Part shown: positions 5,863 through 50,720 of the stretch, one piece after another
How the letters are laid out: every line of letters starts with the position of its first letter
How positions within the stretch are numbered: the stretch's first letter is position 1
From: Lytechinus pictus
Taxonomy: Eukaryota
Direction: 5' to 3'
DNA length: 64,000 bases
Assembly (NCBI RefSeq): GCF_037042905.1
Contig: NC_087250.1
Coordinates: 19,408,001 to 19,472,000 of the forward strand
Notes under the pieces: generated by a model
What the model was told of the DNA's origin: nothing
What the model saw: the letters and a program-made list of their open reading frames with translations, nothing else
Database searches by the model: none
Made by a program: the position numbers and the translations under genes

Positions 5863-5936
5863 ATTACAAAATTTCTTCCAGAATCCTTCGGCACATATTT
5901 TTATTCATACAAACAGACACTTTGGTGATCATTATA

Positions 5937-7701
5937 CAGTGCATCCCCCCAAAAAATATACACTTTTGAAATGGCTGCCAAATAAAAAATGTAGCACTTT
6001 GGGGGAAGAGACTTATAGATATGGAAAGCCAATAAAGTCAACTTTCAAATGACACCAAAAAGTTGGAAAACTATTCATGCTTGAGCGAGCACTGCCCACT
6101 GAAACAAAGGGTATGAAAATTAGGGTGGGCCGGAATTAGCCTTCCAATTTCTTTCAGGTTTTTTTTGTTTGGTACTTGCAAAGTTGAGGGTTATTTGGTG
6201 AATTAAAGATCAGTTGTGATCAGTTTGTTGTTTGTGAAAATTTTTGCGTTATTAAATTTAAATTTAATGCATGAGTGATCTTGAATAGCAATTTTTAGTG
6301 CAGCATTTTGTCATTATTATGTGGATCTCAACAATGTGTTCATGACAGTCAGAAGAGGGGGTAATATGACTTAGGTAGGTGAAGTATACTTACGTTGATG
6401 GGATAAAGGTCAACAGAACATTTAGCACCCCTCTCTCATCTCACCCCCCCCCCCCACGCTTCTCTCCTCCTGAGAGACTATAAGCTCGGCTAGGCTAGGC
6501 AGGAATTAGCCTTAAAGTTTTGTTTTAGTGGTTAGTCCTTTGGAACTTGCTAAGCTAAATTAATAAGTGAGATAAGTTTTGGTTTCTTAGGCAAATTTTA
6601 TGAGTTACTAAATTGAAATGTAATGCATGAGTGAACAGGAATTGTAATTTTAGTGTAGCATATTCATCTTGTGGACCTCAGAAATGTGATCGTGAGAGTC
6701 AGAGTAATGTGATGGTACCTGGGGCATTCCTCTTCTTTTTGTCCTTTTACAAATTAAAAGTCATATGTACCCTCCCCTCTCCACCTCCATTTCCCAGCCC
6801 CCCTCTCCCTCTCTCTGTCTCACTTCGTGGATTGTAGCCTATTCAAAATTTAACTGCCACTAAAATGACCGGTGGCTGATGGTCAGTTTTTCTATTGAAT
6901 GATTACCAAGAAATTTAATGATTAGGAGGATTAATGAAATAATTTATTGAAAAAAATGAATGTTTGATTGATCACATTGCACATTGAATGAGTTGATTTA
7001 CTGATAAATTATTGATTAAATGATTGATACGAAAAAGTTGATGCCCCAATTCAGAATTAATCATTAAATCAACATTCTGCTCTGGACTTCACGCGTACAT
7101 GACAATAGCAATCAGTCTCTCAACAGGAGGGGAGGGCGGGAAAGAGGGAGGGGGCGGGGCTGAATGTTTTGTTGACCCTTATTCCATCAACCTACTTCTC
7201 CCACTTAAGTCCTATCTCACCCCCTATTCTCCCGACTCCCATGAACACATTGCTGAGATCCACATGATAAAGTTGAAATGCCACCCAAAAAGAGATCTAA
7301 ATGATAAACTTGAAATGCTGCCCAAAAAGTGTAATTTGTGTTCACTCATGCATTAAAGTTCAATTTCATAATTCTTTTTTTATGAAATTTGCTTAAGCAA
7401 CCAAAACTGGTTACGGTTGATCATTAATTTATCACAACGCCCTTAACTTAACATGTTCAAAAGGATTTGCCTCTCAAAAACTGACATAAATTGGAAGGCT
7501 AATTCAAGCCCACCCTAATTTTCATAACCTTTGTTTCAGTGGGCAGTGCTCGCTTAAGCATGAATAATTTTCCAACTTTTTGGTGTCATTTTAAATTTGA
7601 CTTTATTGGCTTTCCATATCTATAAGTCTTTTCCCCCAAAGTGCTACATTTTTTATTTGGCAGCCATTTCAAAAGTGTATAGTTATTTTGGGGACGCACT
7701 G
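5937..7701. mobile_element. Tc1/mariner-like non-autonomous element
   Basis: TA-CAGTG...CACTG-TA with ~210-bp TIRs; explains the twin ORFs 5828-6052 and 7586-7915. Confidence 0.85.
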
Positions 7702-20888: not shown

Positions 20889-21445
20889 GGGTGTCTGGAA
20901 AACGAAGACCGAAGACCGGGGACTCATATCACACTCGTATGAAAGCGTTTGTAGTTCACGCCCGAAGTGTGTAACAAAGCAGTGCAAAGTGTGTACAAAA
21001 CACGTGCGCGGGTTAGAATGGACTTTGGACCTTGCCCCGACACATGTTCTCCCATTGACAATGCACGGGTCCCCGGTCTTCGATCTTCGTTTTCCAAACC
21101 TGTTGTTGGGTGTCTGGAAAACGAAGACCGAAGACCGGGGATCGCATTCGTTTAGCTAAGATACCACTTATAAATGTCATTATGAAGGCCTCTATTATTC
21201 AGCTAAAATTCAAGAATATTCTGATCTAGAATACATTAATGTCATTAATTGGCTGATAATGAAGTCATGTTAATTGCTTGTGTCAATAATTAGTATAAGT
21301 AGACCAGTTGAAGCGGGATAGGTCTCCCAGTTTACACCACTATTCCACTGAGACAAGTAACAAACTCCAGTAATCAATCAGACCAGTTTCAAATTTCCAG
21401 TTAAAGGTTAACTCTAGACCAGTAATTTCAGACCAGTTTAATTCT

Positions 21446-22245
21446 CCCTTGTAAAAAAGTACTGCGGTAGTACTGCGGTACAAGTACCGCAGTACTACCG
21501 CAGTACAAGTACTGCGGTAGTACTCGTGGTAAATTGGTCGGTACTACTGCGGTAGTACCGCGGTAGTACCGCAGTACCTGTACTGCGGTAGTACCGCGGT
21601 ACCTATACTGCGGTAGTACTGCAGTAGTACCGCAGTACAGGTACTGCAGTAGTACCGCAGTACAGGTACTGCGGTAGTACCGCAGTACCTGTACTGCGGT
21701 AGTACCGCGGTACCTATACTGCGGTAGTACCGCAGTAGTACTGCAGTAGTACCGCGGTACCTATACTGCGGTAGTACCGCAGTACAGGTACTGCGGTAGT
21801 ACCGCGGTACCTGTACTGCGGTAGTACCGCGGTACCTGTACTGCGGTAGTACCGCGGTACCTATACTGCGGTAGTACCGCAGTACCTGTACTGCGGTAGT
21901 ACCGCAGTACAGGGTACCTGTACTGCGGTACCTATACTGCGGTAGTACCGCAGTAGTACTGCCGTAGTACCGCAGTAGTACTGCCGTAGTACCGCAGTAC
22001 CTGTACTGCGGTAGTACCGCGGTACCTATACTGCGGTAGTACCGCAGTACAGGTACTGCGGTAGTACCGCGGTACCTGTACTGCGGTAGTACCGCGGTAC
22101 CTGTACTGCGGTAGTACCGCGGTACCTATACTGCGGTACTACCGCAGTAGTACCGCTGTACCTGTAAACCTGTACTGCGATAGTACTGCGATAGTACCGT
22201 GGTACCTGTACCATGGTACTACCCTGGTGCTACTGCGGTACTTGC
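21446..22245. repeat. Left subterminal array of GTACCGCGGTA/GTACTGCGGTA-type short repeats
   Basis: About 800 bp of 11-12-bp units in both orientations directly inside the TIR. Confidence 0.95.
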
Positions 22246-23166
22246 ACACCTTTATGAAAACGATCACAATTTCATTTAGCTTAATCACAGTAATAAGAAA
22301 ATTACAAAAGTATTAATATTATAAAAAGTTTATTTTGAGATATGTATATATATATATATATATATATATGTTTTAACATCTGTAATCATGTACTTTCTTA
22401 CTAACATGACTAAGTTTTGGCACACACAATGGCTAAATGGTTGGTTGAGGTAACGGGATTCCTGAAGTTTTAGCACACACAATGGCTGAATGGTTGGTTG
22501 AAGTAAAGGCAAGTTAAAGTTATATGCTTAATATTTTACATGATAAAAACTGTAGTGAAAATCATCTGTACTCGAGTTGCAACAAAAACAAAGATATCTA
22601 ACATCTCTACTTTAGTACTTTTATAACAACTATGACTAACGAGTTTTAGGTTCACGCACAATGTTTGTGGTGAAGGCAAGTTGAGATTACGCTTCATATA
22701 AAAAGTCTATACAATTTCCAAGAACTGTTGAGTTGTAAAACACTGTCCACGTACTTGTATCAAAGTTGCAACAAAAACATAAATCTTCCAATCTTTGACA
22801 AGGTAAGTAAATAGAAGTAAAACATGATTATTTAAAACCATTAAAACTAAACACATGCATCATATATGTAGAAATTGCAGCAGATAATCTATCAATAATA
22901 TCTCAAAACTGTAGTTAAAAACATCTCTACTGAGTTGCAACAAAAACATGTAGATATCTAACATCTCTACTTTAGTACTTTTTTATAACTACTATGACTA
23001 ACGAGTTTTAGGTTCGAGCACAATGTTTATGGTAAAGGCAAGTTGAGATTACGCTTCATATAAAGTCTATAAAATTTTCAAGAACTGTTGAGTTGTAAAA
23101 CACGTACTTGTATCCAAGTTGGAACAAAAACATACATCAATCAAGTTCCTTCCAATCTTTGACAAG

Positions 23167-23619
23167 TAACACGAATAATACAGTCAATTCAATCTTTATT
23201 TCCAAATAAAGATTGAATTGAGCGGAGAATTAAACTGACCATAAATATATATTATAGGTAATAAAGAGCAAAGAAAATGGGGTTCCATCGGGATTCGAAC
23301 CCGAGACCTCCGGATTGCTAGCCCGGTGCTCTACCGACTGAGCTATGGACGGCCCTAGTCGATAATTCGTCCCATAAACCCCTTAACTTTCAATGCTCGT
23401 ATGGTCAGAAGCTATAGAAACCTGACATAAACCCAAAGGATAGAATCAACTTTATAGGCCTATGCGAGGGATCACGGCGAAGTGATGCAGCTTTTTGAAT
23501 ATATAATTAACACGAATAATACAGTCAATTCAATCTTTATTTCCAAATAAAGATTGAATTGAGTGGAGAATTAAACTGAACATAAATATATATTATAGGT
23601 AATGAAGAGCAAAGAAAAT
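23167..23619. mobile_element. 453-bp insertion: 112-bp direct repeats flanking a tRNA-like core
   Basis: Repeats at 23167-23278 and 23508-23619. TSD CTTTGACAAG (23157-66 / 23620-29); empty site at ~22794. Confidence 0.8.
23278..23352 (-). pseudogene. tRNA-Ala(AGC)-like sequence (tRNA pseudogene or SINE-type head)
   Basis: A box TAGCTCAGTCGG, D stem GCTC/GAGC, anticodon arm CCGGG-CTAGCAA-TCCGG, T arm TCGGG-TTCGAAT-CCCGA. Acceptor stem pairs at only 4 of 7 positions; followed by TTTT. Confidence 0.7.
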
Positions 23620-25175
23620 CTTTGACAAGGTAAGTAAATAGAAGTAAAATATGATTATTTAAAATAATGAATCATAAATAAATAAATGAATCATATATGT
23701 AGAAATTGTAGCAGATAATCTATCAATAATATCTCAAAACTGTAGTTAAAAACATCTGTACTGAGTTGCAACAAAAACATGAAGATATCTAACATCTCTA
23801 CTTTAGTACTTTTTTATAACTACTACAGATAATCTATCAATAATATAACAATATTTGTTACAGCACTTTATCAATGTGACCTTACACAACAAATAAGTAG
23901 GGTAAATATATTGTGTACACATATAGAAGACAATGCCTTTAAAATGTTACATGAGCATACTTTGTTATTTGGCACAAGGCAAAGTTTTTAAAGGACGAGA
24001 GGAAATTTGCCACTTAAATAAATGGCGTCAAACGCATACACATTATCAAAGTTATTTTTCAGCACACAATGAATATATTTCAGCAATATCTTTGGCAAAT
24101 AGAGTACGGAACAATCAGGAACATGAAATAATTTGGTATATTCCCGTCATTCAAAATCATAACAAAAGCAATTTTAATTCCATTCGCTTTTGTTTAAAGA
24201 CCAGATTAACAATACCAAATGTCTCAAATTTTAATGCATGTTTGAGGCAATTTAGGTTCCCCATATAAATTTTGATGTCTTCCAAGAGACGTAGTTTCTT
24301 GTTAGTCTGATTTGATTCCATTCTTCAAGGTGAATTTGGGCTTTTATCCGTAGATCATATATAAATGCCATTTTTTGCACAAAAAAATCTCAAATTGTTT
24401 CCTTATCAGATCAAAATTTACTCAACAAGAAAGTTCTTGACACTTATTTGTTTAGAAGGGTGCCAACAAAGAACACTGATTGATGCGTGCGCACTGTCAT
24501 TTGATATCCACATGCCAAAACATAAAATTTAATATATTAGTACCAGCTGGACGGAAAACACAATACATGCCTAGAATTGATGTGATGGCCCATGAAGAGC
24601 TTTTTATCAAAATAGCTTTAGAAACAGGTGAAATGTTAAAGATCATCAAGCGTTGGGATGCTACGCTACAGATCGCCATTTTGAACTAGGCTAGTTTGTG
24701 CGCAAGATGGCACTGTGTGTATGATAAACGATGCAGGAGCACCTTTAATATATCAGATAAGGATAATTCTGGCCCCTATTAAAACATTATTATTATTTTT
24801 TTTAATGTTGGTCTGTAGCAAGCATTATAGCAATGCCTGTGGTCTAAAACATATTCCAATCAACCAAAAAAATACACAGGAGCGACGGGCGATTCAGAAG
24901 TGCCAGAAACGTACCAAACATGGCATACTCGGATAGGTCGCATCATGATGATCATACTAAATTATATTTGGAACAGAATATGCATGTGCTTGTTATTAAA
25001 GTCCTCTGATGCTGGCAGTGTTCGGCAGGCCCATGTTACTGACCTCGTCACTGAATGGTGCGAAGAATGTGGCAGGTCGCGCAAATTTGCCTCCTCTGGA
25101 CAGTGAACAGGGGATAATTAGTAAGTAACAAGACTTAGCTCATTATTAATTAATTAGTCATCTTGACAAAGTGCT

Positions 25176-28100
25176 TCATTCGGTCTCATCTTGTGGTTCT
25201 TGGTTTAATTCTTTGGCTTGGTTTTCTTTGGCTTGGTTCTCTTTCGGTTGAGATCTACGTTTGGCCAACTTAATTTCGTTGCCAACTTTGTTCCGCATAA
25301 CGATGCGGATTTCCGATGATGACACTCCTGGGAACTTTGACTTGACATGACCTGCAAAGGAACACGTAAAAAACAAAAAAAAAAAGATTATAGTCAAGGT
25401 AGGTAAATGAGAATCATAGCACGACTTGGGTGCCAATGGCCACTTGAAATTTTATTTGGCCACTAGAAATAAGAAAGAAGCTCTGTATTAGCCACAAACT
25501 TGTTAGGTTCTACAACACACAAGTCTATGATCAAATATATTTAATGTGTTATGTTCACCTGTAAATAAAAAGCTAAGCACTAGCCCTGCATAGATTGGGC
25601 AGTGATATCTTTTTATAATAAGTAGGCTGATACGGGCTATTCCAGAGTCAAAGACATTACAAATATGAACTAGATGGATCTTCGATTGCGAACTATAAAA
25701 AATCCTGCTTCCGCTATCGCACAATTTAAAGGATGTAACTTGTACTTTGAATACAAAGCTATGAACAAGTTTATACACTACAAGTTTACAAACATTTGGC
25801 TCATCAAATGTTCAGCTATTTCATAAAATGTGTACCATCAGGATCCATTACATAATTTGCCCAAATATGTAATGTCCATGATGGCACACATTTTCCACTA
25901 TAAACGAACAATGAATGAAGAAAATATTATCAAATCAAAATTGCTGGTAGCTTTGTAATCTGAGTAAAAATTACATAATGGACGGGTACATCTGTCAGAA
26001 GTGATCATGATATTGGGAAACCCTGTTATAACGAGCTCGCTTATAATGAAGTACAGGTAACCCTGTTTTAACAAGGTGGTCGGGACCATCAAATTTACCT
26101 CGTTATATTAAGCGGTACTTCGTTATAAACGGCAGATTTAATAATACATATAAAACACAGATTTACGATCGGGACCAAAGGATTCCCCTCGTTATAAGCG
26201 AGTTCGTTATAACGGGGTTTCCCTGTACCGCTTATAACGAGGAGAATCCTTTGGTCCCAATTGTAAATGTGTTTCTATATGTGTTATTGAATCTGCCGTT
26301 TATAACGAGATACCGCTTATGACAAGGTAAAATCGATGGTCCCAAACACCTCGTTATAAGGGGCCGAGATTTCTTGTGGGGGGGGGGGTGCGGGCTATAG
26401 ACTAACCTGGCCTGGTGAGGACTAAATACTGTTAACAATATTGACAGTACACACTTAATGCAACAAATAAATGTTTCTGAAATATTTTGCCGATTTGCAA
26501 GCTCGAACCATCATATAATTAGAAATTGTTATCTTGTATACGAGCAGTAATCAATGTTAATCATGGTTATGTACAAATTTTCTTTTTGAATCTGGGCCAC
26601 TTAGTCGAACTAAAATATTTATACATGAAGTAATTACCTGTGGTCGTGCTGATGATGGCGAGGATTGGGTGGAGGACTGGGTGGAGGAACGAGCGGGCGA
26701 GGATGATGGACAGTGCATCTCTTCATGATCAGCCTGCCAATGAAAACGAAAATCCATATTTCATACCATCAAATATTTACCAAGATTTTACTGCAAAGTA
26801 GGTCAAGCAATCAAAGGAAACAAAAGCAAACAGAAAATAGCAAATAGCATAAGAGATTTGCATGCATGTTTCCTCCTCTAAAAAATGACTTCTAAATAGT
26901 TACTAATTCCCACTGATTCAGTTTTCATAGACCTATACAATATAACGATCCATCCAGAGTAATTCATCATAAACACAAATGCACGCTGGCCTGGAATCGC
27001 TTTGCCTAAAGGAGTGATCACACAGTCATGACTATACCCACAAATGCTGTACACATTTGCCTGCGGTATTAACCTGTACGATCGTAGTTCGCCATGTATC
27101 GACCATACCTACATATGCTCAATGCATACTGTATGCATATTTGCGAATGCCACAAGAATGCAGTGAGACAGCAGTAAATATGCGATACTCTTCCATCAAG
27201 AAAGAAGAACCAGTACGAGGGTTACACACTTGGTACAATTGCAGTAAGAATGTCATAGGTATTGTCCACCATTCTTACTGCAATCATACTGAGTTCGCAA
27301 GACATCGTACTGGTTCTTCTCCATTCTTGATGGAAGTGTTATCGGATTCTTACTGCTTTCTCATGGCATTGGCAAATATGTGAACAGTAGACATAGAGCA
27401 CTAGTTCGTACCACATGCATACAGCAAATTCGTGGGTATAGTCATGTCCAGTGTGACCACCCCTTAAGATTCACAACATACCTTGAGTCTCGACATCTCC
27501 TCCATATCCACTATGAACCCTTTAAAGGTTTCGATGAATTTAGGCACTCCTTGAACAAAAACAAAATAACATAGATATTTATTCATACCACTAAAAATTG
27601 AACTATTTAAAACTATGAAGGTATTATATGAAGAAAAATTTGCCAAACCGAAGCTGAATACTCTAGAATGGAGAAGAGAGCTGGAGATTTAATACAAACA
27701 TAAGATCATGACACAGATAAAAAAAAGTAGAAAACTTCTTTGAGAGATTGGGATACCTCAGAAAAAGAAGCCACTCCATGAATTTCACAAAGTTCAGAAG
27801 GCTTATACAGAGTTGTTAACATATGGAACAAGTCCCCTCATTCCAACTTTTTTTTTTACCAACTATTCAACATGAATTATTTAAATGGGCTCAAAAGGGC
27901 ACCATAAACTAAAGGTTTGTTTAACGAATATGTGAGGTATATGACTATGAGGTATTGTCCAAGCATTTGAATACTAAATAATGGGAGGAAATACTGTACC
28001 TTGCAAAAACAACAGCTGTTGCTGTATCTTTTCCCTAACTGCCTTCTCCTTAGTCAGCTTCACCTGCAGATCCTCAGTCTCTCTCCTTGATTTCTCCAAC

Positions 28101-31100
28101 TGCTTTTTCAGGTCAATTATCTCACCACTTGTTCCACTTCCCGTTGCCGTACGTCCATTTGATTTTTTCTGTCAGAATGATAACAAATCGGACACTAGTT
28201 AAAAAGTATGGTTTATGAATGTGAACCAGCGCAATTACCTCGTCATAACAGGATTTAGTTAATTTTGACCAATAACAAGGTTTCACTGTGAATTAGGATT
28301 TGTAAGATTTTACATGGCAATTAGCATACTTATCTAACTAAATATATTGACTTTGTACATTTATAATGTTTAATTACTTAGCTAAATATGTTCAATGAAA
28401 ATTTTAAAGGATTCATTCAAATGTGTTAAAATTGTAGCAATCAATAGGAGGGCAAGTCCAAGATAAGGTCCCCTGAGAAGACAAAATTTCATCTTTGCTC
28501 AACATTGAAATGTTTGGTGTCATTTTGAAGCATGATAGTTGAAATTTAAAATTCTGTGAAGGAATAAATTGTATCATGCAAATTTATGCAAATTTCAGTG
28601 ACTTAATTTGCATAAATTAGAAATGCTGTGTTACGTATGGGACAAATATAAAAAAATCATTATTATTTAAAGAGGAAGATCAGTAGTGGGCGAGAGGGCG
28701 TTGGAACCATTTAACTATTTTGGGAGCTGGAATGAAAATAACTAAAAATACTGAAGTAAGATCATTAATTTTAAACAAATGTCACGTTTATTTGATCAAA
28801 ATCGGTTCAGAAATGGCTGAAATATCAAAGAAAACATATTTACTTTTGTACGTGGCCCACGTACAAAAGTCGATAACGGCCGTGTGTATTGATATTTGAA
28901 TTTTACGAACGAATTTTCGCTCTTCGATGGATACAAGATCAACCTTTTTTCATTCATAAAATCACACAGAAGTAAAATTAGGTGTCCAAAATTCCACGAT
29001 AGTTCTTTAATGATGTTTTCTTTATATAAATACCCATTAACCTGATTTCAAATACATTTCGAGTTCCTAAACCACTACTGATCTACACCTTTAAAGGAAC
29101 ACAATTGAAATTTTATTAATATGTGGACCTAAGAGGTTCATCATCTATTTTAATTTGGTATGAAAATTTATGCACGACGCAATTAATTATGCAAATTAGG
29201 TCGCGTCCTATCAGCGATTGTCCCATACGTAACAAATTGAGGACATTTTTTTAGTTTATTTCTGAATTTGTAAAAGTTATTGCAGTGCTATTCTGGGAAG
29301 TTCTAATTTATTGTGTTAAGAAGTTAGATACTGGTTAGAAAGAAAAGAAATAACAATTAGACCCATTTTTAATTAGCAAATGAAATAATGTTACGTATGT
29401 GACAATGTGTTACGTATGGGACATCCCCATATATATTGCATGCGAATGTACATGCAGCAGGCATCAATAGTTTCTCAGTACATGAATGGTCAATGAGCCT
29501 GCAGCATGCATCCCAATCTTGCAGCCACTGTCTTGAGACAATACTAGACTGCTGCATTCTAAATGGGGAGAGGTAGGTAAAATAAATCAGCATGAAATGT
29601 GTAAAATATATTAATTTAGGTAGAGCATAATCCATACAGAAGTCATCACTTCATTTGAGAACAATCTGAATATGAAGGAGCACATTTGTTCTTCAAGAAA
29701 TGCAACAACATTAAGCCATCCAGAAGAACCTGATTCAGATTGAAAGAATGCTATAATTTGATTAAAAAATACCCTCTTATTTATTAATTTGTAAGAAAGG
29801 TGAAAATATATGACATTCAGACAGTTGCCATTACTGTCAGCCTCGGAATCATGAGGAAGAAAACAAGTCTTGCAAAACAAAGTTCAGCTTTGCTAATGAA
29901 CCAGAGACAGATTTTTTTTTTTTACCTCCACCAGTTACTACCAATCAAGAAATTCACATCTTTACAGAGGAAAGTGTAGCTACTGAGTAAGATAAATACA
30001 GTGAAGAGGGATAACAAAAAAAAAAAAGAACAAATTTTACAAAAATTATGTGATGATGCAGAAGATGCCCATAAAAAATAGCCTTTCAGAAAAGTTTTGT
30101 TAGAAACTGTGACAACATCAAGAATTTTAACTGTGTATTATTTCATATTGTGGCCCCCCTGTTCAAGATTAAATCTACAGGTAGTAAAGATGTATTTGAT
30201 AAAAGCAAGGGTGTGTATGCTTTCATTTTAGAAATCATGCAACTGTTTCATGGCATTTCATATTTAGGGAAAATACACTAATATAGACCAAGAACGGTGC
30301 ACGGTGGTTCATTATATTCGCACAGAATGATCATACTTGTTTGTAGATCTATAGCTGGTATTACTCAAGTGGTTCTTCTTGAACAATAGAAAAGGCATTT
30401 TCACACAGTTTAATTATACAACTTAAAAGCCCAGTGAATGTATAAAAATTGCCCCCACCCCCAAATAAAAAAAAAAAAAAAAATATCATCAAAACTTCTA
30501 TAATAATTAGCACTAGTAAATACATGTTCAAATCAGTTAGTGGTTGATTAGCAGCATGCCCGTATGAAACAAAATAGATAAAAATGAAAAATATAATCAA
30601 ATATGATTATGGTTGTAAATTTTATTGGAATTTCATTTTCCTGACAATTTGCAAACAAATCTGATTAATTACAGCTTATTTCACTTTGGTAACCAGACCA
30701 AAAATCCAATATACGCTTTCCACACACTAAACGAATAGGGGAAAAAATGTCCCATACGTAACACGTCATATCTGTCTTTAATCAGAGCCTGTACTTAGAG
30801 CTTTCTGCCTTTTTACATGAAATTTATCCTTGGTAAACTTGAGTGCTGTGACTTTTATCACAGTGAGTTTCAAGGTTTTAAATGAAATACTTTCTGAGCA
30901 ATTTCAACTTGAAAAAGAAATTAAAAAAATCTCTTTTCTTCTGGTCCCATACGTAACAGCACACATTTTCTCTTCTAAAATCTCATTGTCAAGGTCATTT
31001 CTCACAATTTTTTACATGAATACACTTCTCCTGGATATCAATCACCATGGTTAAATTCAATGCAATCAAAGTTCCTTTACACCATTTTTCTGGAAATAAA

Positions 31101-34100
31101 AGCCTCTGAAATGTCCCATACGTAACACGCGCGTTATCTTGGACTTGCCCAGGACTGAGCATTTAGTTAATTGTCATATAACAGTGATTTTAGGACACTT
31201 TGCATATGTGAACAAACTTATAGCTTACTATGCATCAACAGGTACCTTAGATTAATCACGCTTGCAAGTTGCAATTCCAAGGTGTTTAAATAGCTGCACA
31301 TACCGTTTCATTGGCACCAAACATTTGCTTCCTGAGATCCCTGGCCATCTCATTGCACTGTGAAATTTTTGATTTTGATTTCTGAAAAAGGAAAAGATAG
31401 AAGTAAAAACAATTTTATGATTTTTTTTAAATAGTACTGTTTAGCATCTTGGGAATTGTCTAGGCACACAAGTTACACAACCATTGGCGATTGCAGTTAC
31501 TTCATGAAGAAAAATTTAGCAATATGTAGACGCTTAGAACCATCTGTATTAAGCACCCAAGAAATTTAAAAAAAGAGCAAAAACATGTTATTCTGTTTCT
31601 ACAAATTGAAAACAAATATCCCTCCTTATACATTTTAACCAGAACATTTGTTTATAAATATGATTGAGCTGCATAATATTGAAACAAAGCCAACAATGTT
31701 ATTTCTGTAAACTGTAAAGGATTTATTGACTATGTTTGTTGATGAGTTTGTAAATGATAACTGGATAGAAAGATTTTGTTAATCTGTCAGTCATCAAAAA
31801 TTACTTCCAGTGTTGGGATATCATATGACACATGTACACACACCTTTGTTTCTTTTGGTTGAGGCTCCTCATCATCCGTCTCCAACTCCGAAGATGAATA
31901 CATGTATGTGCGTGTTGGTTTCTTCTTTCTCTTCCCTCTCCCAGTTTCCTTATCAGTCTCCATTGATTGCCCGTCACACATCTTGTTCCTTTTTCTGATG
32001 AGATTATCCTTGGATCCTTTAAACAATTTTGAAACAAATTAAAAAATTAACTATACAATTTCAAACAAACTCACTTGGAGCTTTCCCACTCCTCATTTGG
32101 TTTGGTTTATGGAAATAATTAATACAAAAATCACTTTTCAAATGTCTCCATAATCATGATAATTGCTTTAACATATCAGGGAGACCCCGAAAATTTTTTT
32201 TAACAGGCTAGGGCACTTCTAAAAAATAATCATGCACATAATCATGTTTATGTCAGATTGTCAATTTCTAGTACCTACCTCATCATTCATGCAGCTCGTC
32301 AGCGCCACACATACAGACATAACTCTGGGGCGATCCGAATCCACTCAAAAGTGAACAAAAAACTAAAAAAGTTCACATTTGTGCAGTTGGCCACGGGAGG
32401 GAAGTCTCGGAAGCCATTAAATGACTGAATTTGTGCCGAATGGAGGGGGAAATCCGATTCTTTTATGGAGGCACAGCAAAGCTAGCATATTGCGTCATAT
32501 TTTGGTGGTAATTAAGTATTGCATGATTTTATTATTTTAAAGCTGAATTCAGCTGCACAAATGTGAACTTTTTTTGTTCACTTTTGAGTGGATTCGGATC
32601 GCCACGCGCAGCGTGGCAATCCTCGGAGTTAACAGACATGTAACTCCGGGGATCGCTAGCGCGACAGCGCTAGTGATCCGGAGCCAAAAATGTCTAATGG
32701 GAGTAATGCGCAGCGAAAAACTGCTTTAAAATAATTTAAAAAAAAAAAAAAAAAAAAATCTGCTAGCGATGCCCGGAGTTAAATAACAGACATGTTGATA
32801 ATGCATGTGAGGCTTGGTCTTGGAAATTTACTAGTACTACGTGATCATGTGGTCAGTGCCACTGTTTACATCGCACTCACTGCAATATACCAACATCATG
32901 GCAATGTACGAACATCAGAACATAAATCACAGACAATGTTTATAATATAGAAGAGTAGCTAGTAGAACATTCAAATACAAAGTCAAATTCAGTTAACAAA
33001 AATAACGGTAAAGCCTAAAGGTCTACAATTGCACACCCCCCTGGCATTTCAAAAGTGTATGGCCGATTGAGATGAAATTTGCACAAATTGATGCTCTAAT
33101 AATGATTAATACATTACGATATCGGCATCGACATCCAATGCGATCGCAATGGAGAGTAGTTGTTGCCTCCGATCGTACAACCAATTGTGATCAATCCCAA
33201 ACAATAATAACGCTGATCATAACATGTGATAAACTTTTTTCCATTATGAATATAAATTATAAGGGAAAAAATAACAGAAAAAAATGTAAAAAGTCTTGTT
33301 AATGTTATCACACTCACAGCGTTATAATTGTTTGTGATCCATCACAATTGGTTGTACGATCGGAGGCAACAACTACTCTCCATCGGCATCGCAATCGCAG
33401 CCATTGCCATGTTGACACCGATAAGGCGATATCGTGAGTTCCCGCCTTCGAATTTCTTTGAAATTTTTGTCACATATCAATCATTATTAGTTAGACTTAG
33501 AGCATCAATTTGTGCAAATTTCAATCGGCCAAATATTTGTTGAAATGCCAGGGGGGTGTGCAATTGTAGACCTTTTTTTACCAAAATAACAATTTGAATC
33601 AATATAGATCTAATTAATAGTACATTGACTGTAGGTAGTGGTACAAGTCAATGGACCATGTCAATTGACTGTTAACCCATCAGTGCCTAAGGCTAAGCCC
33701 CGCATATTTGTGGGATGGTAGTGATATTTTAACGAATAATGGCCAACAAAATTTACGACAAATACGAGTTGCCAATTTGTAGAGGAAAACAATGATCAAT
33801 TTGGCCTTTAGCCTTTAGGCTTTAAATAGCTCTCGTCCTTGATGGGTTAATGAGTCACAAGTAGATCTAGTACTAACATACACAAGGTGTTTTACACATA
33901 TGACAAGAATATATAGGATTAGGAATGGTGGCAGTGAGTGAGCATGTCAACAATAATGTTACATTCCCATGGCCATGCACACGTTTGTCTTCGGCTTCGC
34001 AGACGCAGTTTCTTTTTGGAAGGTTTAGGCTAGATCTATTTGAAAGTCGATTTGAACTTGAAGAAAAATATGTAGGCCTACGTTAAATTCTTTAGACTTA

Positions 34101-34482
34101 AATATTGTATGACATCAGATGTGTTCATTATGAGATTGTGCAGCCGATCATATAATTTTCAATTTGATTTTATGCAGAGAATATGTATTTTTGACATTAT
34201 TCGTTGACATGTACGTCATTGTTAGTAATGCATGCATGATGCATGGGACTGAGTTGCATGGGTACACCGTACGGACTTACTATTTACAGCCAACACTGTT
34301 GCTCGATACTTCTCCGTTTTGCTGCCACTGACCCACATAACTTCAACAGCTTGATCGACATAGCTTTCAGGATCCACATCCTTGTCCGTGTCTAATATCC
34401 AAGAAAATGGTCCAATTTCGACGCTGTCATCGCTTTCAAATTCAAAAAGACAGAAGAACTCGTCTGAAGCTGGTGGCGGCAT
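25176..34482 (-). CDS. Spliced gene: BEND5-like N-terminal region, acidic/basic linker, coiled coil, Ser-rich linker and partial BEN domain (possibly internally deleted)
   Basis: Exons 34482-34281, 32016-31844, 31381-31304, 28168-28000, 27549-27482 and 26733-26638 have GT-AG boundaries and matching phases (1,0,0,1,0). They give 262 aa: MPPPASDEFFCLFEFESDDSVEIGPFSWIL...KYRATVLAVNRSKDNL...DLKKQLEKSRRETEDLQVKLTKEKAVREKIQQQLLFLQGVPKF...SSPSSARPQ. The last exon 25351-25176 reads HVKSKFPGVSSSEIRIVMRNKVGNEIKLAKRR, resembling BEN C-terminal helices (recognised by eye), but needs phase 1. Confidence 0.75.
26015..26365. repeat. Intronic MITE-like repeat with CTCGTTATAAC motifs
   Basis: Multiple GTTATAAC(G) motifs and an internal inverted duplication (GGGACCAAAGGATTC / GAATCCTTTGGTCCC). 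Confidence 0.6.
27019..27455. mobile_element. Intronic MITE with CAC...GTG termini
   Basis: CATGACTATACCCAC / GTGGGTATAGTCATG TIR and further internal inverted matches. Confidence 0.7.
28450..31150. mobile_element. Sola2-like non-autonomous element in intron 3 of the BEN-like gene
   Basis: 17-bp TIR GGGCAAGTCCAAGATAA, 4-bp TSD AGGA, repeated internal motif TGTCCCATACGTAACA. Sola2 inferred from GRG termini and 4-bp TSD. Confidence 0.75.
28671..29090. mobile_element. Kolobok-like MITE nested in the Sola2-like element
   Basis: TTAA-AGAGGAAGATCAGTAGTGG ... CCACTACTGATCTACACCT-TTAA. Confidence 0.75.
33018..33574. mobile_element. Intronic palindromic MITE
   Basis: ~80-bp TIR AAGGTCTACAATTGCACACCCCCCTGGCATTTCAA... 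plus inner inverted repeats. Confidence 0.8.
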
Positions 34483-34499
34483 AGTGAAGCTGAGATCTT

Positions 34500-34640
34500 G
34501 AATGAAAAATAGACGATCGCGCGCGCCTTTCTACGATCCAATAAAAAAGGTGCACGCGCGTCACGTGATTTTTCGAGATACGCGCATGCGTCCTTCAGGT
34601 GATCACGATTGTCAAACAATCGCGTACATATTACATCGCA
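34500..34640 (-). promoter_or_regulatory. Putative CpG-rich promoter of the BEN-like gene
   Basis: Local CpG enrichment just upstream of ATG 34482, with an E-box GTCACGTGAT (~34560) and an NRF1-like GCGCATGCG (~34582). Confidence 0.5.
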
Positions 34641-35007
34641 TGATTTTACTGTTCAATGTCCATATTGCATGTAAAGATTAATTAGCCTATATAAATTTGT
34701 GTACAAATCCTGTGGGAATTGTTTTTTTTTTCAAAGAATAGTCAAAACCCTCATTATTTTTCTTTTTCATCACTGCAATCATTTGATTTGGGGCTAAAAG
34801 TTGTTGAATAATGTTCAATATTTTTTCCATAAAAAGAAAAACAAAAAAAATATAATATCAAACAAATACATAAGAAATTAAAAACCAAGAAATACATGAG
34901 GAATTTGTTGGCTATCACAATTTGTAATGTTAAAAACCAGTTTATTTAGTAAAAATGGATGTTGATACAGATAATAAGCATATTCTGAGCCATATTTAGT
35001 GATTAGG

Positions 35008-35437
35008 AGTACCACGGTAGTACCACGGTAGTACCACGATAGTACCACGGTTCTACAAGTACTTCAATTGTACCGCGGTACTATTGCAAGAGTACCACGG
35101 TAGTACCACGATAGTACCACGGTTCTACAAGTACTTCAATTGTACTGCGGTACTACTGCATAAGTACCACGGAAGTACCACGGTAGTACCACGATAGTAC
35201 CACGGTTCTACAAGTACTTCAATTGTACTGCGGTACTACTGCATAAGTACCACGGTAGTACCACGATAGTACCACGGTTCTACAAGTACTTCAATTGTAC
35301 TGCGGTACTACTGCATAAGTACCACGGTAGTACCGCGGTAGTACCGCGGTATACTACAAGTACTTCAATTGTACCGCAGTAGTACTGTGGTAGTACCGCA
35401 GTAGTACCGCGGTAATCGCAGTACTTTTTTACAAGGG
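35008..35437. repeat. Right subterminal array (AGTACCACGGT units within a larger ~65-76-bp repeat)
   Basis: Repeated gtaccacggtag and ctacaagtacttcaattgtactgcggtac blocks up to the TIR. Confidence 0.95.
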
Positions 35438-38400
35438 CTTAACTGGTCCAGTAAAGTGAACTCGACCAGTTAGACCAGTATGCCGTTTTTCCATTTTCCA
35501 GAATTACATTCTGTGAACTGGTTTTTCCTTCTTAATTGGCTGACATTAATTTGCAATTTTACTATACCATTGACATAACGCATGTCCCCGGTCTTCGGTC
35601 TTCGTTTTCCAAACCTGTTGTTGGGTGTCTGGAAAACGAAGACAGAAGACCGGGGATCGCGTCAATTCGTCTAGCTAAGATAGGCCTATAATATTCAGCA
35701 CCAGTTCAAGAATATTCTGATCTTGGATACGTCATCAGCTATGATTGGCTGCGGATAAGTTATGGTTATTTGTGTGAATATATATGCAGCTAGGGCATGA
35801 TAATAAGGATAACGTACATATTTCACCCACGGAATTCAGCCATTGCAATTCTGAAAACTGTCATGAAACTGAAAACTTGCATACAATACACCTCATACTG
35901 CGCAATCACGTACTTGTAAGCAGACTCAACTCAACTGGCGTTTGCAGTGCAACTATATTTTACTACCATTGACATTACGCATGTCCCCGGTCTTCGGTCT
36001 TCGTTTTCCAAACCTGTTGTTGGGTGTCTGGAAAACGAAGACCGAAGACCGGGGATCGCATTCGTTTAGCTAAGATACCACTTATAAATGTCATTATGAA
36101 GGCCTCTATTATTCAGCTCAAATTCAAGAATATTCTGATCTAGAATACATTAATGTCATTAATTGGCTGATAATGAAGTCATGTTAATTGCTTGTGTCAA
36201 TAATTAGTATAAGTAGACCAGTTGAAGCGGGATAGGTCTCCCAGTTTACACCACTATTCCACTGAGACAAGTAACAAACTCCAGTAATCAATCAGACCAG
36301 TTTCAAATTTCCAGTTAAAGGTTAACTCTAGACCAGTAATTTCAGACCAGTTTAATTCTTAACTGGTCCAGTAAAATGAACTCGACCAGTTAGACCAGTA
36401 TGCCGTTTTTCCATTTTCCAGAATTACATTCTGTGAACTGGTTTTTCCTTCTTAATTGGCTGACATTAATTTGCAATTTTACTATACCATTGACATAACG
36501 CATGTCCCCGGTCTTCGGTCTTCGTTTTCCAAACCTGTTGTTGGGTGTCTGGAAAACGAAGACAGAAGACCGGGGATCGCGTCAATTCGTCTAGCTAAGA
36601 TAGGCCTATAATATTCAGCACCAGTTCAAGAATATTCTGATCTTGGATACGTCATCAGCTATGATTGGCTGCGGATAAGTTATGGTTATTTGTGTGAATA
36701 TATATCAGCTAGGGCATGATATTAAGGATAACGTACATATTTCACCCACGGAATTCAGCCATTGCAATTCTGAAAACTGTCATGAAACTGAAAACTTGCA
36801 TACAATACACCTCATACTGTGCAATCACGTACTTGTAAGCAGACTCAACTCAACTGGCGTTTGCAGTGCAACTATATTTTACTACCATTGACATTACGCA
36901 TGTCCCCGGTCTTCGGTCTTCGTTTTCCAAACCTGTTGTTGGGTGTCTGGAAAACGAAGACAGAAGACCGGGGATTGCGTATTCGTCTAGCTAAGATAGG
37001 CCTATAATATTCAGCCCCAGTTTAAGAATATTCTGATCTTGGATACGTCATCAGCTATGATTGGCTTTGGATAAGTTATGGTTATTTGTGTGAATATCGT
37101 TATCAGCTAGGGCATGATATTAAGGATAACGTACATATTTCACCCACGGAATTCAGCCATTGCAATTCTGAAAACTGTCATGAAACTGAAAACTTGCATA
37201 CAATACACCTCATACTGCGCAATCACGTACTTGTAAGCAGACTCAACTCAACTGGCGTTTGCAGTGCAACTATATTTTACTACCATTGACATTACGCATG
37301 TCCCCGGTCTTCGGTCTTCGTTTTCCAAACCTGTTGTTGGGTGTCTGGAAAACGAAGACCGAAGACCGGGGATCGCATTCGTTTAGCTAAGATACCACTT
37401 ATAAATGTCATTATGAAGGCCTCTATTATTCAGCTCAAATTCAAGAATATTCTGATCTAGAATACATTAATGTCATTAATTGGCTGATAATGAAGTCATG
37501 TTAATTGCTTGTGTCAATAATTAGTATAAGTAGACCAGTTGAAGCGGGATAGGTCTCCCAGTTTACACCACTATTCCACTGAGACAAGTAACAAACTCCA
37601 GTAATCAATCAGACCAGTTTCAAATTTCCAGTTAAAGGTTAACTCTAGACCAGTAATTTCAGACCAGTTTAATTCTTAACTGGTCCAGTAAAGTGAACTC
37701 GACCAGTTAGACCAGTATGCCGTTTTTCCATTTTCCAGAATTACATTCTGTGAACTGGTTTTTCCTTCTTAATTGGCTGACATTAATTTGCAATTTTACT
37801 ATACCATTGACATAACGCATGTCCCCGGTCTTCGGTCTTCGTTTTCCAAACCTGTTGTTGGGTGTCTGGAAAACGAAGACAGAAGACCGGGGATCGCGTC
37901 AATTCGTCTAGCTAAGATAGGCCTATAATATTCAGCACCAGTTCAAGAATATTCTGATCTTGGATACGTCATCAGCTATGATTGGCTGCGGATAAGTTAT
38001 GGTTATTTGTGTGAATATATATCAGCTAGGGCATGATATTAAGGATAACGTACATATTTCACCCACGGAATTCAGCCATTGCAATTCTGAAAACTGTCAT
38101 GAAACTGAAAACTTGCATACAATACACCTCATACTGCGCAATCACGTACTTGTAAGCAGACTCAACTCAACTGGCGTTTGCAGTGCAACTATATTTTACT
38201 ACCATTGACATTACGCATGTCCCCGGTCTTCGGTCTTCGTTTTCCAAACCTGTTGTTGGGTGTCTGGAAAACGAAGACAGAAGACCGGGGATTGCGTATT
38301 CGTCTAGCTAAGATAGGCCTATAATATTCAGCTCCAGTTTAAGAATATTCTGATCTTGGATACGTCATCAGCTATGATTGGCTTTGGATAAGTTATGGTT

Positions 38401-39467
38401 ATTTGTGTGAATATCGTTATCAGCTAGGGCATGATATTAAGGATAACGTACATATTTCACCCACGGAATTCAGCCATTGCAATTCTGAAAACTGTCATGA
38501 AACTGAAAACTTGCATACAATACACCTCATACTGCGCAATCACGTACACTTTTTTGTAAGCAGACTCAACTCAACTGGCGTTTGCAGTGCAACTATATTT
38601 TACTACCATTGACATTACGCATGTCCCCGGTCTTCGGTCTTCGTTTTCCAAACCTGTTGTTGGGTGTCTGGAAAACGAAGACAGAAGACCGGGGATTGCG
38701 TATTCGTCTAGCTAAGATAGGCCTATAATATTCAGCACCAGTTCAAGAATATTCTGATCTTGGATACGTCATCAGTTATTGATTGGCTTTGGATAAGTTA
38801 TGGTTATTTGTGTGAATATCGTTATCAGCTAGGGCATGATATTAAGGATAACGTACATATTTCACCCACGGAATTCAGCCATTGCAATTCCGAAAACTGT
38901 CATAAAACTGAAAACTTGCATACAATACACCTCATACTGCGCAATCACGTACATGCAGACTCAACTCAACTGGCGTTTGCAACTATTTTACTTCCATTGA
39001 CATTACGCATGTCCCCGGTCTTCGGTCTTCGTTTTCCAAACCTGTTGTTGGGTGTCTGGAAAACGAAGACAGAAGACCGGGGATTGCGTATTCGTCTAGC
39101 TAAGATAGGCCTATAATATTCAGCTCCAGTTTAAGAATATTCTGATCTTGGATACGTCATCATATGATTGGCTGCGGATAAGTTATGGTTATTTGTGTGA
39201 ATATCGTTATCAGCTAGGGCATGATATTAAGGATAACGTACATATTTCACCCACGGAATTCAGCCATTGCAATTCTGAAAACTGTCATGAAACTGAAAAC
39301 TTGCATACAATACACCCCATACTGCCCAATCACGTACAAGCAGACTCAACTCAACTGGCGTTTGCAACTATTTTACTACCATTGACATTACGCATGTCCC
39401 CGGTCTTCGGTCTTCGTTTTCCAAACCTGTTGTTGGGTGTCTGGAAAACGAAGACAGGAGACCGGGG
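35438..39467 (+). repeat. Tandem array of ~400-bp (A) and ~521-bp (B) units, each with a 70-bp hairpin
   Basis: Hairpin CCCCGGTCTTCGGTCTTCGTTTTCCA-N18-TGGAAAACGAAGACMGAAGACCGGGG starts at 35586, 35985, 36506, 36904, 37302, 37823, 38221, 38625, 39013 and 39398. The array begins at 20889-21445, before the 14-kb insertion. Confidence 0.95.
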
Positions 39468-39680
39468 ATTTCATTTGTCAAGCTTATTTCCACATATAGC
39501 GTGCTATGGACACGTTTCCGTGCAATTGTACTTCGTTTTCTTCATGCTGGCTGATAAACAGACCTTAAAACAACCGATATACGTGGATACAATATTCCAT
39601 GAAATTGTCATATCGTTTTTAAAGAAAACAAATTTTCAAACTGAAAAAATGCATGCAATTAATAGATGCTTACATAGAAT

Positions 39681-47410: not shown

Positions 47411-48589
47411 AATGCTCAGGAACAGATGACTGGGTGCAGGCAGGCAAGGCAGTTCAGGTGGGATGAAAATTTATGGGCAGGACACCTTCCGTTCAAATTA
47501 CAGCATCTGCAAAAATAACAGAAGAGGAGAAACATAAAAACTTTTTCTACATAAACTATTTATTAATCTTCATTAAAAACTAGATGGTTTCAATATTAAT
47601 TTCCAATTTATTTTAAATGATTAAAAAACGATGTGGGGTTTGTTACATATTTTATACTTCAAATATTAACATGTTAAGTCAAGTCGGGGGGGGGGGGGGC
47701 ATGATGCCCTCAAGACCTTTAACCATCTCTGTATAAGGAAGGGAATTTTAGAATCAATTTATTTGACACATAAAACATATTCTTTTTTTATAATTACAAT
47801 TTTAATTCATGCCTTTTTTATGTGTTTTAAATGGTTATGGGGTAACCAGGACTGTCAGGACCGAGAATTCGAACTTCGAGGCTGAAATACAGCCATTCCC
47901 TATGCCTGATTTGGCTTAAATTCAGGTCAAGGATCAATTAAATATATATTTTGAAAAAAAAATCTGACAAATTTTGAGGTGGAATTAGTTTTCTGGCATC
48001 GCGAGATCGACCAATGCAAAATTTTATTAGCGCCAATTTACCATCTAAACTTGTCATTGAAATTAGAACGTCCAAACCGATCTAGTACCAGTACTAGCAC
48101 AATCATGACAATGAATCAATCAGCTATGCATGTGCACCAATTCTGTATTTCTTGCATACGTACGTCACTCGAGTTAAAGTTCATGTCATTGCGTTATATA
48201 GCATGGGAATTGTAAGAAAGTGATCCTTCAAAATTTTTACCTTCCAACAATTAACATTTTTTAAGCCTTTGTATGCATTTAGAGTACAAAAGCTTACAAA
48301 TTGGACAAATTAAATGTTTGCCCCAAAATTATTGTGGGAAGGGTGGATTTTCTAGGGAAATCCATCTTAGTGTACAAAGTTCTACAGGCAACAGAGACTT
48401 GTCTAGGCTCCGTGAATGAAAATACAATGAAAAAATATCACAGAGTCCTCGAAGTACAGTCAGGACCATTAACAGATTAAAAGGTGCCCCGAGTTTGTGC
48501 ACACCCAAATCTGCGTGATTCTGATAATAGAGATTCCCAATGATCCCCCCCCCAAAAAAAAAGGCTTTACATCTGAAATAGCCTTCTAA

Positions 48590-48780
48590 CTTACCTACTG
48601 CCCGATGCCTCCTATCATGTAGGGCAGCAACGAAGGATCTCCACTCCTGGCATCCAGCGATTCTGGGCCTTCTTCTGGAAACTCCCCCAGGCCAGGTCAT
48701 ATTCACTGACTTCATCTCCTCCTCAACTCCTCATGTGTGACACCGAGACAGGTGGTTTTGTGTCTCCCTCTCTTTCTCCT
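48590..48780 (-). mobile_element. 3' end fragment of an RTE-clade LINE
   Basis: Translates across frameshifts as GERKRGRHKTT...EEEMKSVNMTW...QKKAQNR...EWRSFVAAL, the typical RTE C-terminus. Confidence 0.7.
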
Positions 48781-48877
48781 GAAATGTCAAACAGATCTAT
48801 TCATTAAAAATCTTACTCATAATGGTGCTTTTGGTAGAAAAATAATGAATATAGGGCATTTCATGTGACGCCCTTAA

Positions 48878-49660
48878 CCCTTATTAAACTGGGGGGGGGG
48901 GTCAATTTGACCCCCCCCCCCTCAACAAATTTCATCACTATTCACTACGCTGTCGCACAAAAAATTTAGATCGCACCGCTCACTGACTTTTTACTTTCAA
49001 GTCTCGCGCAAATTTTGAGACCAAATTTGTGACGCCCGGGTACGCGGTTACGTCATTACGCAACATTATGTAAGTGCATGTCAGACCCAAAATTGCTCAT
49101 AAACATGATTTCATGTACAAATCCAATGCAAATTGTGTATTTAGCCAAAATTCATAAATTTATCATTATTTCTACTTTTACTGATTAAACTTAATTAATT
49201 TTGCCTTGTTTATGATTAGAATTAAGTCTAGAACGATTTCCATCGAAAATACAATAAAAAACAAAATGTGAAAAAACAAAGAAATATGATTTAAAAAAAA
49301 ATAAAATACATAAGAAATCGGTCTTTGGTACCAGATTTTTTTTCATTCACAATTGTTAGGAATGCTATAAAGAATATTTTCACCCAAAAAATAGCATTCT
49401 AGGAGCTTTATTTAGTGAATCAGAGCAAAAAGTATGATTTCATGAATAAATTAGCATAATTAATTCATATAAAATAAAAAAATATGAATTCAGTGAAATT
49501 TACCAATGCAACTACGTAGATTACGTCATTCTCTACCATCATGCAAATTTTCGTTGTGATCGTGCAATCCACGGCCGAGATCTTATAAGGGGGGGGGCAA
49601 TAATACCCCCCCCCCCCCCCGGGAATGACAAGAATCAAAATACCCCGGTAGATTTAGGAT
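48878..49660. mobile_element. piggyBac-like MITE
   Basis: TTAA-CCCT left end and decayed TTTAGGA-TTAA right end, with GGGGGG-N-CCCCCC subterminal palindromes. Confidence 0.6.
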
Positions 49661-50469: not shown

Positions 50470-50720
50470 TGTTTGGTCTCCTGCGAATGCCTTCGAAGTC
50501 GTTATCCAAATCTGAACCGTGTTCTTAAAGTAGTAGAACTATTATTAACGGCCATCTTCGTCGCACTTAATTCTCGATCCAAAATTAGGCTGCAACATTT
50601 ACGGCGAAAAACGGGCGCATTCCTTTTTCAAATTAAATGGTTACGACTGCGCCAGTTGCATGCAGTGCAGCGCGCATGCGCAGGCTCGACGCCCGGCGGC
50701 GAATTAATTCTGCGGATCAT
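50470..50720 (-). promoter_or_regulatory. Putative inward-facing promoter and first exon of the 44018-51570 element
   Basis: CpG-rich; NRF1-like TGCGCATGCGCG (50671-82), YY1-like AAGATGGC (50551-58), donor ACA|GTAAGT at 50470. Duplicated at ~57040-57300. Confidence 0.45.

Follow-up and report, generated by a model that had tools for sequence, protein, structure and literature searches.

A young transposon family with a BEND6-like gene in the sea urchin Lytechinus pictus, a probable derivative of a two-gene CMC/En/Spm-like element

The maize En/Spm (CACTA) transposon relies on two proteins, the transposase TnpD and TnpA, which binds the subterminal repeats. A 64,000-nucleotide stretch of the Lytechinus pictus genome (assembly GCF_037042905.1, contig NC_087250.1, positions 19,408,001 to 19,472,000; hereafter the window) contains an element that resembles En/Spm in several respects. 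It is large (13,992 bp, window positions 21446–35437, with exact limits), it has short terminal inverted repeats (TIRs) and extended subterminal arrays in which a short motif stands in both orientations, there are many non-autonomous deletion derivatives, the candidate transposase is of the tnp2/Transposase_21 type, and a second DNA-binding protein is the presumed partner. The two systems differ in their ends (CCC...GGG here, CACTA in maize) and in the length of the target-site duplication (2 bp versus 3 bp). The second protein of the sea urchin family is of a BEND6-like Tudor/coiled-coil/BEN type unrelated to TnpA, and the two proteins come from separate genes rather than from alternative splicing of one transcript. 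Unlike maize En/Spm, the two-gene element is known here only from a rearranged locus on contig C10. On balance, the window element is probably a non-autonomous deletion derivative of a two-gene CMC/En/Spm-like transposon, in which a BEN protein presumably served as a helper.

[quoted passage not shown] Animal CACTA elements make 2-bp duplications, and MITE derivatives are likewise known, while the CAC...GTG ends of these elements do not vary, and the available part of the source (PMC6004678) mentions no BEN gene in them. PIF/Harbinger elements offer another parallel: in the available texts (PMC4482050, 10.64898/2026.05.26.728016), a catalytic protein without an evident DNA-binding domain works with a separate protein that binds DNA sequence-specifically, although the transposase (DDE, with a Myb/MADF partner) belongs to another fold family, the duplication is the 3-bp TWA, and the DNA-binding domain is a different one. 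No description of a BEN protein as a transposon helper was found in searches of the open-access literature, one of which covered the top 12 among 180 listed papers, and the combination of CCC...GGG ends with a 2-bp duplication was not found described in the literature cited here.

The TIRs of the window element are 21 nt long and exact (CCCTTGTAAAAAAGTACTGCG and its complement); the left one (21446–21466, forward strand) starts with CCC, and the right one (35417–35437, minus strand), an exact inverted match to the left, ends with GGG. The termini CCCTTG...CAAGGG are found in 40 of 40 family ends. A CT dinucleotide stands on either side of the element, at 21444–21445 on the left and 35438–35439 on the right. 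Two uninterrupted copies of the host repeat are present in the same window (36359 and 37676), where tttaattct is followed directly by taactggtcc, with one CT each. Since both empty sites carry a single CT, the element limits and the 2-bp duplication are proven, not inferred. Both the perfect inverted repeat and the CT duplication with its empty sites had been proposed in the initial annotation, made from the letters of the window, and both are borne out.

The 21-nt end occurs 40 times, with zero mismatches, in the 812-Mb assembly searched, and these occurrences are spread over 16 contigs. The ends form 17 pairs of 13.1–16.1 kb and three longer pairs (18.5, 25.9, and 43 kb), with a few unpaired ends on C3, C6, and C10; the family includes about 21 gene copies. 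Over their full length, ten other copies align collinearly with that of the window, the differences being insertions and deletions, and the flanks are different at every copy. Of 13 paired copies, 11 are bordered by matching 2-bp duplications (AA, TA, CC, AT, AG, TA, GG, TA, CT, TA, and TC). The other two, on C13 and on C9 at 8.59 Mb, are flanked by unequal dinucleotides (tc/ga and ta/ac, respectively), which may reflect recombination between copies or rearrangement of a flank. In the unique regions of 11 aligned copies, 0.07–0.12% of the cells differ from the majority base; the expansion of the family is a very recent burst. The element moves as a TIR-bounded unit with a 2-bp duplication of no fixed sequence, by cut-and-paste mobility in trans. 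Its description as a mobile TIR element with a BEN-related gene as the sole gene is upheld. The alternative that there is no transposon, and that the copies are segmental duplications of a host BEN gene cluster, could draw only on the introns and the promoter of the gene; it is refuted by the exact TIRs, the different flanks, the 2-bp duplications in 11 of 13 copies, the precise empty sites, and the spread over 16 contigs, and its probability is close to nil.

The gene itself is confined to the elements. All 107 genome matches to P0003, the protein model of a long copy, lie inside TIR-bounded copies. When a homolog from L. variegatus was used as a query, the best genome matches were again element copies (59–61% identity), and three weak fragments on C8, 42–47% identical, lay outside. 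A TIR-less parent BEN gene was not found in this genome in the protein searches with P0003 and the L. variegatus homolog; the single-copy host locus that would have spoken against a transposon gene is absent from these matches.

The window element has no transposase, as had been stated from the sequence: the Pfam scan of 81 of the 95 stop-to-stop open reading frames of at least 50 amino acids (aa) revealed no transposase family (the other 14 lie in arrays or flanks), and tblastn with the transposase P0087, described below, found nothing in the window or in ten other copies. The 25.9-kb copy on C16 was considered as an autonomous element and rejected, its extra DNA being nested copies of other repeats. 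A genome search with Pfam Transposase_21 (tnp2, PF02992) gave 12 matches in the 812 Mb. One of them, at C10:30,079,926, lies between two family TIRs, in a 17.4-kb interval bounded by the left end of the C10 BEN copy at 30,073,089 and by a 235-bp right-end piece with an exact TIR ending at 30,090,493. The probability that a tnp2 match falls in this 17.4-kb interval by chance is about 3e-4; for a distance of up to 20 kb from any of the copies it is about 0.01. The initial annotation had suggested that other copies be searched for a CACTA transposase; the window copy and ten others contain none, while the C10 copy adjoins a tnp2 gene.

The C10 transposase gene is intact, with an open frame of 657 codons; the NCBI model (LOC129268704, P0087) has 775 aa and matches Pfam Transposase_21 with an E-value of 6e-10. 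P0087 was aligned with 31 homologs, which come from echinoderms, fishes, ticks, and ants. The alignment shows conservation of D310, D395, C414, and C417, and at least 90% of its rows also have H621, H625, and E645. These residues appear to be the motifs that the available part of PMC12730594 lists for the clade as D, D, C(2)C, H(3)H, and E. The first coding exon of P0087 begins 974 nt beyond the tip of the left-end TIR of the C10 copy, and P0087 and the BEN gene lie on one strand. In L. pictus a protein of the BEN family, LOC129268705, bears the next number after the transposase, and in L. variegatus the BEN protein P0006 (LOC121412415/XP_041461160) and the tnp2 protein P0094 (LOC121412416/XP_041461161) are encoded on the same 66.4-Mb contig.

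The second protein is best seen in the longer copies of the family. The intact long-form protein P0231 (401 aa) has a Tudor-like domain followed by a coiled coil and a BEN domain, and it matches Pfam BEN (PF10523) with an E-value of 2.7e-8 and 34.3 bits versus a cut-off of 23.2, so for the long form the Pfam check proposed at the outset comes out in favor of BEN. The NCBI long-copy models P0003 (34.4 bits), P0219, and P0231 are all above this cut-off. An intact L. variegatus homolog, P0005 (421 aa), is 62% identical in the BEN part and scores 40.1 bits, with 73 of 76 profile positions covered. Its AlphaFold model includes a small N-terminal β-barrel, a long helix (residues 169–239), and a helical BEN domain (288–395). 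Foldseek relates the BEN part to the structures of Insensitive (E 3.6e-6), BEND6, and Elba1, with TM scores of 0.80–0.83, and gives weak Tudor-domain matches for the N-terminal part (E 0.08–0.3).

Among solved structures, human BEND6 is the closest in sequence (E 0.001). The exhaustive HMMER search returned 82 relatives; four of these, from a caecilian, Lingula, Ptychodera, and Amia, were looked up and all bear the name BEND6 or BEND6-like, with the first three aligning over the full length and the Amia protein lacking the N-terminal domain. BEND5 is absent among the named matches. The evidence gives the element protein a putative place in the BEND6 family, BEND6 being the sister of BEND5. The earlier BEND5-like label was right in kind, but the named and structural matches point to BEND6. 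Like the BEN-solo factors BEND6 and Insensitive (PDB 7yul, 7yun, and 4ix7), the element protein ends in one BEN domain, preceded by a coiled coil, and it has the Tudor-like N-terminus in common with the proteins named BEND6 in the caecilian, Lingula, and Ptychodera. Overall identity to the BEND6/Insensitive factors is only 17–28%, and, unlike theirs, the element gene exists in many copies, all within TIR elements and most of them in decay.

The structure of the gene in the window copy was established from three RNA runs labeled as this species, together with the contig set X1, placed on window positions 22250–34990. Six junctions, CT..AC on the forward strand and GT..AG on the minus strand, define a gene of seven exons on the minus strand, which starts with the ATG at 34482 and has a product of 310 aa. 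Stranded RNA reads support junction 32015/34280 (six reads, X9), junction 31381/31844 (two reads in X9 and three in X11), and junction 28168/31304 (two in each); all six junctions are present in spliced X1 contigs at a depth of 76–384, and the three 3′-most come from X1 alone. The initial annotation had a six-exon frame of 262 aa, which the reads and contigs replace with seven exons and 310 aa; it was correct that the gene is spliced, while the proposed exon model fails, with the last exon being read in another frame. A CpG-rich 5′ untranslated and promoter region at 34483–34640 (minus strand) has an observed-to-expected CpG ratio of 2.14 versus 0.67 in the element interior, with an X9 RNA depth of 0 above 34575, and the CpG promoter first read from the sequence stands.

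All exons are on the minus strand. The coding part of exon 1 (34281–34482), delimited by the ATG and an RNA junction, encodes the Tudor-like N-terminal domain, and exon 2 (31844–32016) a basic nuclear-localisation-like stretch followed by an acidic one; exon 3 (31304–31381) has its junctions in X9 and X11 reads. Exon 4 (28000–28168) encodes the coiled coil. Exon 5 (27482–27549) has junctions from X1 contigs only, and exon 6 (26638–26733) is Ser-rich, with an in-frame 33-nt deletion private to the window copy; exons 2, 4, and 6 are likewise placed by RNA junctions. The last exon, exon 7 (24118–25351), contains coding sequence at 25351–25208 and a stop at 25207–25205; its joint is 25349/26636, the contig covers 24118–25349, and the 3′ untranslated region extends to 24118 at least. 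A hand-built exon at 27837–27750 was dropped, as the RNA junctions do not use it.

Compared with the longer copies, the window copy lacks a 1.26-kb segment at 26363 (deletion junction 26363–26364). In the long copies this segment bears a 211-nt exon, entered in phase 0 and left in phase 1, that encodes the first two thirds of the BEN domain; an exon-wise search finds it in 8 of 21 gene copies (C1, C3, C5, C6:8.78 Mb, C9, C10, C16, and C21). Where the BEN exon is present, translation of the last exon follows the BEN-like frame; the BEN exon is lost from the window copy, therefore the frame shifts, and the last exon of the window mRNA is read in the VMSSQ... frame. The C-terminal third of BEN and the tail persist at 25179–25349 (minus strand) as an out-of-frame remnant, 100% identical to P0003 residues 328–384, which in long copies joins the BEN exon in phase 1. 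The BEN-like last exon of the initial annotation is in this respect a true BEN remnant, although out of frame in the mRNA of this copy. The remnant alone gives no Pfam match, and the short-form protein P0002 gives no BEN match in the Pfam scan. The mRNA of the window copy encodes a protein without a BEN domain, and no BEN protein is possible from this copy. In the 3′ untranslated region there is also an inverted partial duplicate of the BEN exon (24976–25122, forward strand), which corresponds to P0003 residues 283–327 at 71% identity and whose DNA is 88% identical to the long-copy exon.

Under each end of the element lies an array of short repeats, about 750 nt on the left (21457–22210) and about 430 nt on the right (35008–35414). 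Their unit is an 11–12-bp palindromic motif, GTACCGCGGTAC, with CpG-to-TpG/CpA variants. The left array consists of palindromic GTACYGYRGTAC in both orientations with periods of 25 and 50 nt; the right one is a 72-nt unit repeated 5.2 times, with the motif AGTACCRCGGT. Of the 10-mer TAC[YRYR]GTA there are 55 instances in the left array and 16 in the right one, and the 64-kb window has none outside them, so that the dense subterminal arrays reported at first sight are confirmed by 71 palindromic motif instances, all inside the two arrays. According to the available part of PMC11472053, two BEN domains bind one palindrome of 10–12 bp, with a core of CGCG (BANP) or CATG (NACC1). The core is CCGCGG in the BEN-element repeats and CCATGG in the MITE repeats described below; the same two cores, CGCG and CATG, separate the repeats of the two families. 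The match to published BEN sites is suggestive and does not amount to evidence that the element protein binds the repeats.

The second, small family consists of about 15 MITEs of 65–240 bp, whose terminal 17 nt are common with the BEN element and whose 2-bp duplications are perfect in eight of eight cases. Their subterminal repeats have GTACCATGGTA where the BEN element has GTACCGCGGTA, the MITE repeat form being GTACCATGGTAC. CCATGG, seen at the MITE loci L060–L067, L068, L071, L080, and L087, is a doubly deaminated CCGCGG and also a CATG-core palindrome. A 972-bp MITE (L063) owes its extra length to a nested copy of an unrelated abundant repeat and was set aside. Solo matches to the 14-nt end proved to be MITEs whose second end is mutated, chance matches, a 240-bp MITE, and an old interrupted element, with no transposase among them. 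The element end at L088 (C3:60,689,479–60,693,278) is older and diverged; it shares the 14-nt terminus, has about 700 nt of GTAC-rich subterminal repeats, and is followed by a retroelement-like open reading frame on the opposite strand.

A two-component mechanism can be proposed from these features. The ancestor would be a two-gene element of the CMC/En/Spm type encoding a tnp2-type DDE transposase (P0087) and a BEN protein. The transposase would act in trans on the TIRs of the approximately 21 BEN-gene copies and of the MITEs with the same 17-nt ends, the tnp2 protein cutting at the TIRs. The BEN protein, as a coiled-coil dimer, would bind the palindromic repeats of the GTACCGCGGTAC type under both ends and would join the ends, recruit the transposase, or regulate the element, like TnpA or the Myb-like protein of PIF/Harbinger. 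A helper role is suggested because the 71 motifs are confined to the arrays, because the gene is found only in elements, and because of the published BEN structures. A complex prediction for the transposase with residues 1–225 of the short form scored 0.15 (mark 0.34) and has no weight either way.

The assignment of the family to a superfamily is less straightforward. The 2-bp duplication fits the 2–4-bp range of CMC elements, as seen in 11 of 13 copies, 8 of 8 MITEs, and the empty sites of the window, and arrays of short subterminal repeats in both orientations, a CMC trait, are present. The duplications observed in elements and MITEs (AA, TA, CC, AT, AG, GG, CT, TC, GA, TT, and CG) follow no fixed sequence. 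The piggyBac elements, whose ends would fit CCC...GGG, are excluded by this 2-bp duplication, which is not TTAA; ISL2EU, of the PHIS superfamily, would be expected to have an AT duplication and TIRs starting with GG, where the present TIR starts with CCC (PMC4482050, available part). Tc1/mariner (TA) and Chapaev (3–4 bp) are likewise ruled out by a 2-bp duplication of no fixed sequence, as judged by the accessible portions of PMC4482050 and PMC4079192. Given the linkage to a transposase, membership in the CMC/En/Spm clade, as a variant with unusual ends, is rather likely. For the CACTA/EnSpm call of the initial annotation, the tnp2 gene 974 nt from the C10 TIR and the 2-bp duplication are in favor, and the CCC...GGG ends, not CAC...GTG, are contrary.

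A number of observations weigh against the derivation from a two-gene CMC/En/Spm-like element, and they concern first the ends and the C10 locus. In the available texts, CMC elements have CAC...GTG or CA...TG ends (PMC4079192, PMC6004678, PMC12730594), and CCC...GGG breaches the CAC...GTG rule. A canonical autonomous two-gene element was not found in the assembly, and there are no further TIR pairs in it beyond the BEN-element and MITE families; the search of the genome with whole-interior DNA scored only one candidate. At C10, the two TIRs have the same orientation; the BEN copy lacks its last 744 nt, its homology ending at the edge of a 132-nt G/C-rich segment, and the right-end piece is only 235 nt long. 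No element homology was found in the DNA adjoining the left-end TIR, upstream of the right-end piece, or in the 801 nt downstream of the transposase, and the reading of the locus covers about 11 kb of its 33 kb. The adjacency of BEN and tnp2 genes in L. variegatus is deduced from consecutive identifiers rather than from coordinates. The C10 order would result if the left arm of a two-gene element were inverted, or from an inversion that followed a nearby insertion. An AT duplication around the whole C10 complex was not counted, as its boundary could equally be drawn one base away (CA or AT).

These points lend themselves to the explanation that the family belongs to another or undescribed superfamily, with the C10 tnp2 gene a chance neighbor and the true transposase outside the assembly or unrecognised. 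Such an explanation would take the CCC...GGG ends as a hallmark of the piggyBac type and not of CMC, the C10 arrangement as non-canonical, with no homology linking the transposase region to the element, and the chance of about 0.01 as not negligible when only 12 tnp2 matches were scored. It is improbable, since the 2-bp duplication of no fixed sequence excludes piggyBac, ISL2EU, and Tc1/mariner (PMC4482050, in its available part), and the same pairing of genes recurs in L. variegatus by identifier numbering.

The other difficulties for a derivation with a BEN helper come from the BEN gene. We infer, rather than observe, binding of the repeats or of the transposase by the BEN protein. Frames are open in 4 of 11 copies (the window copy, C8a, and C9a in the short form, C9b in the long form), and the other 7 have stops or frameshifts, some common to several copies. 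Relative to the majority, there are 3 synonymous and 13 non-synonymous substitutions, with a pN/pS of about 1.2 that denotes no purifying selection among copies; exon divergence is 0.12% versus 0.07–0.09% in introns, so the exons are no better conserved. Because of these exon and substitution figures, single copies are seen to decay neutrally, in the manner of transposons, which has little bearing on selection in the active lineage. Copies without the BEN exon outnumber those with it (13 versus 8 of 21), and from their success it follows that the BEN protein is not needed in cis.

Multiplied BEN-less copies (13 of 21) and broken frames in 7 of 11 copies at a pN/pS of about 1.2 would also be expected if the BEN gene were host BEND6-like cargo, acquired by gene capture or transduplication and with no part in transposition. 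The host-gene-like introns and CpG promoter agree with such an origin, as does the fact that BEND6 is a conserved bilaterian host family of the same three-part architecture. Capture of this kind is nevertheless unlikely. There is no TIR-less parent in the genome, the nearest outside matches being the 42–47% fragments on C8; the intact L. variegatus homologs are only 48–62% identical, pointing to an old, fast-evolving lineage and not to recent capture; the gene stands beside a tnp2 transposase in two species (in L. variegatus by identifiers); and the arrays are palindromes of the kind bound by BEN domains.

Several other features of the locus deserve mention. A unique right-end module occupies 34695–35004, with an indel boundary at 34698; the 1.26-kb segment of long copies (e.g., 4873–6132 of the C21 copy) holds a second copy of it, 75% identical, a hint that an older element, nested or rearranged, figured in the history of the family. 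RNA reads show T>C at 33163, 33185, 33186, 33355, and 33374, equivalent to A>G on the minus-strand transcript. These sites lie in intron 1, in the two arms (33124–33215 and 33317–33408) of an 85%-complementary inverted repeat, and all 11 aligned DNA copies have T at the sites between 33163 and 33374. Three A>G sites at 26073–26097 come from reads of the opposite orientation, and all 11 aligned copies have A there. The A>G pattern looks like A-to-I editing of hairpin RNA, although about ten other copies could carry variants.

The DNA surrounding the element (35438–39470 and 21300–21445) is a composite host repeat made of units of about 1317 bp with tandem repeats of 385–398 bp, and it is rich in gaccagt words. 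The 146 nt to the left of the insertion recur in at least 40 genome places at 99–100% identity. Farther along the window, 47569–51570 and 56179–57919 belong to another repeat family, 88–93% identical to the DNA nested in the C16 BEN-element copy.

As a wider and tentative proposal, doubtful at present, animal elements of the CMC/En/Spm type may use a BEND6-like protein as a TnpA-like helper on palindromic repeats with CGCG or CATG cores near the element ends, and the bilaterian BEN-solo factors (BEND5/6, Insensitive) may share ancestry with this helper by domestication or capture. If true, this would give the TnpA/TnpD pair of En/Spm its first counterpart in animals whose DNA-binding domain is defined and structurally understood, and it would point to a transposon connection for the BEND5/6–Insensitive transcriptional repressors. 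This laboratory sea urchin would then harbor a very young (about 0.1% diverged) and probably still active two-component system, for which natural intact genes for both proteins (P0231 and P0087) and mini-elements of 65–133 bp exist for tests.

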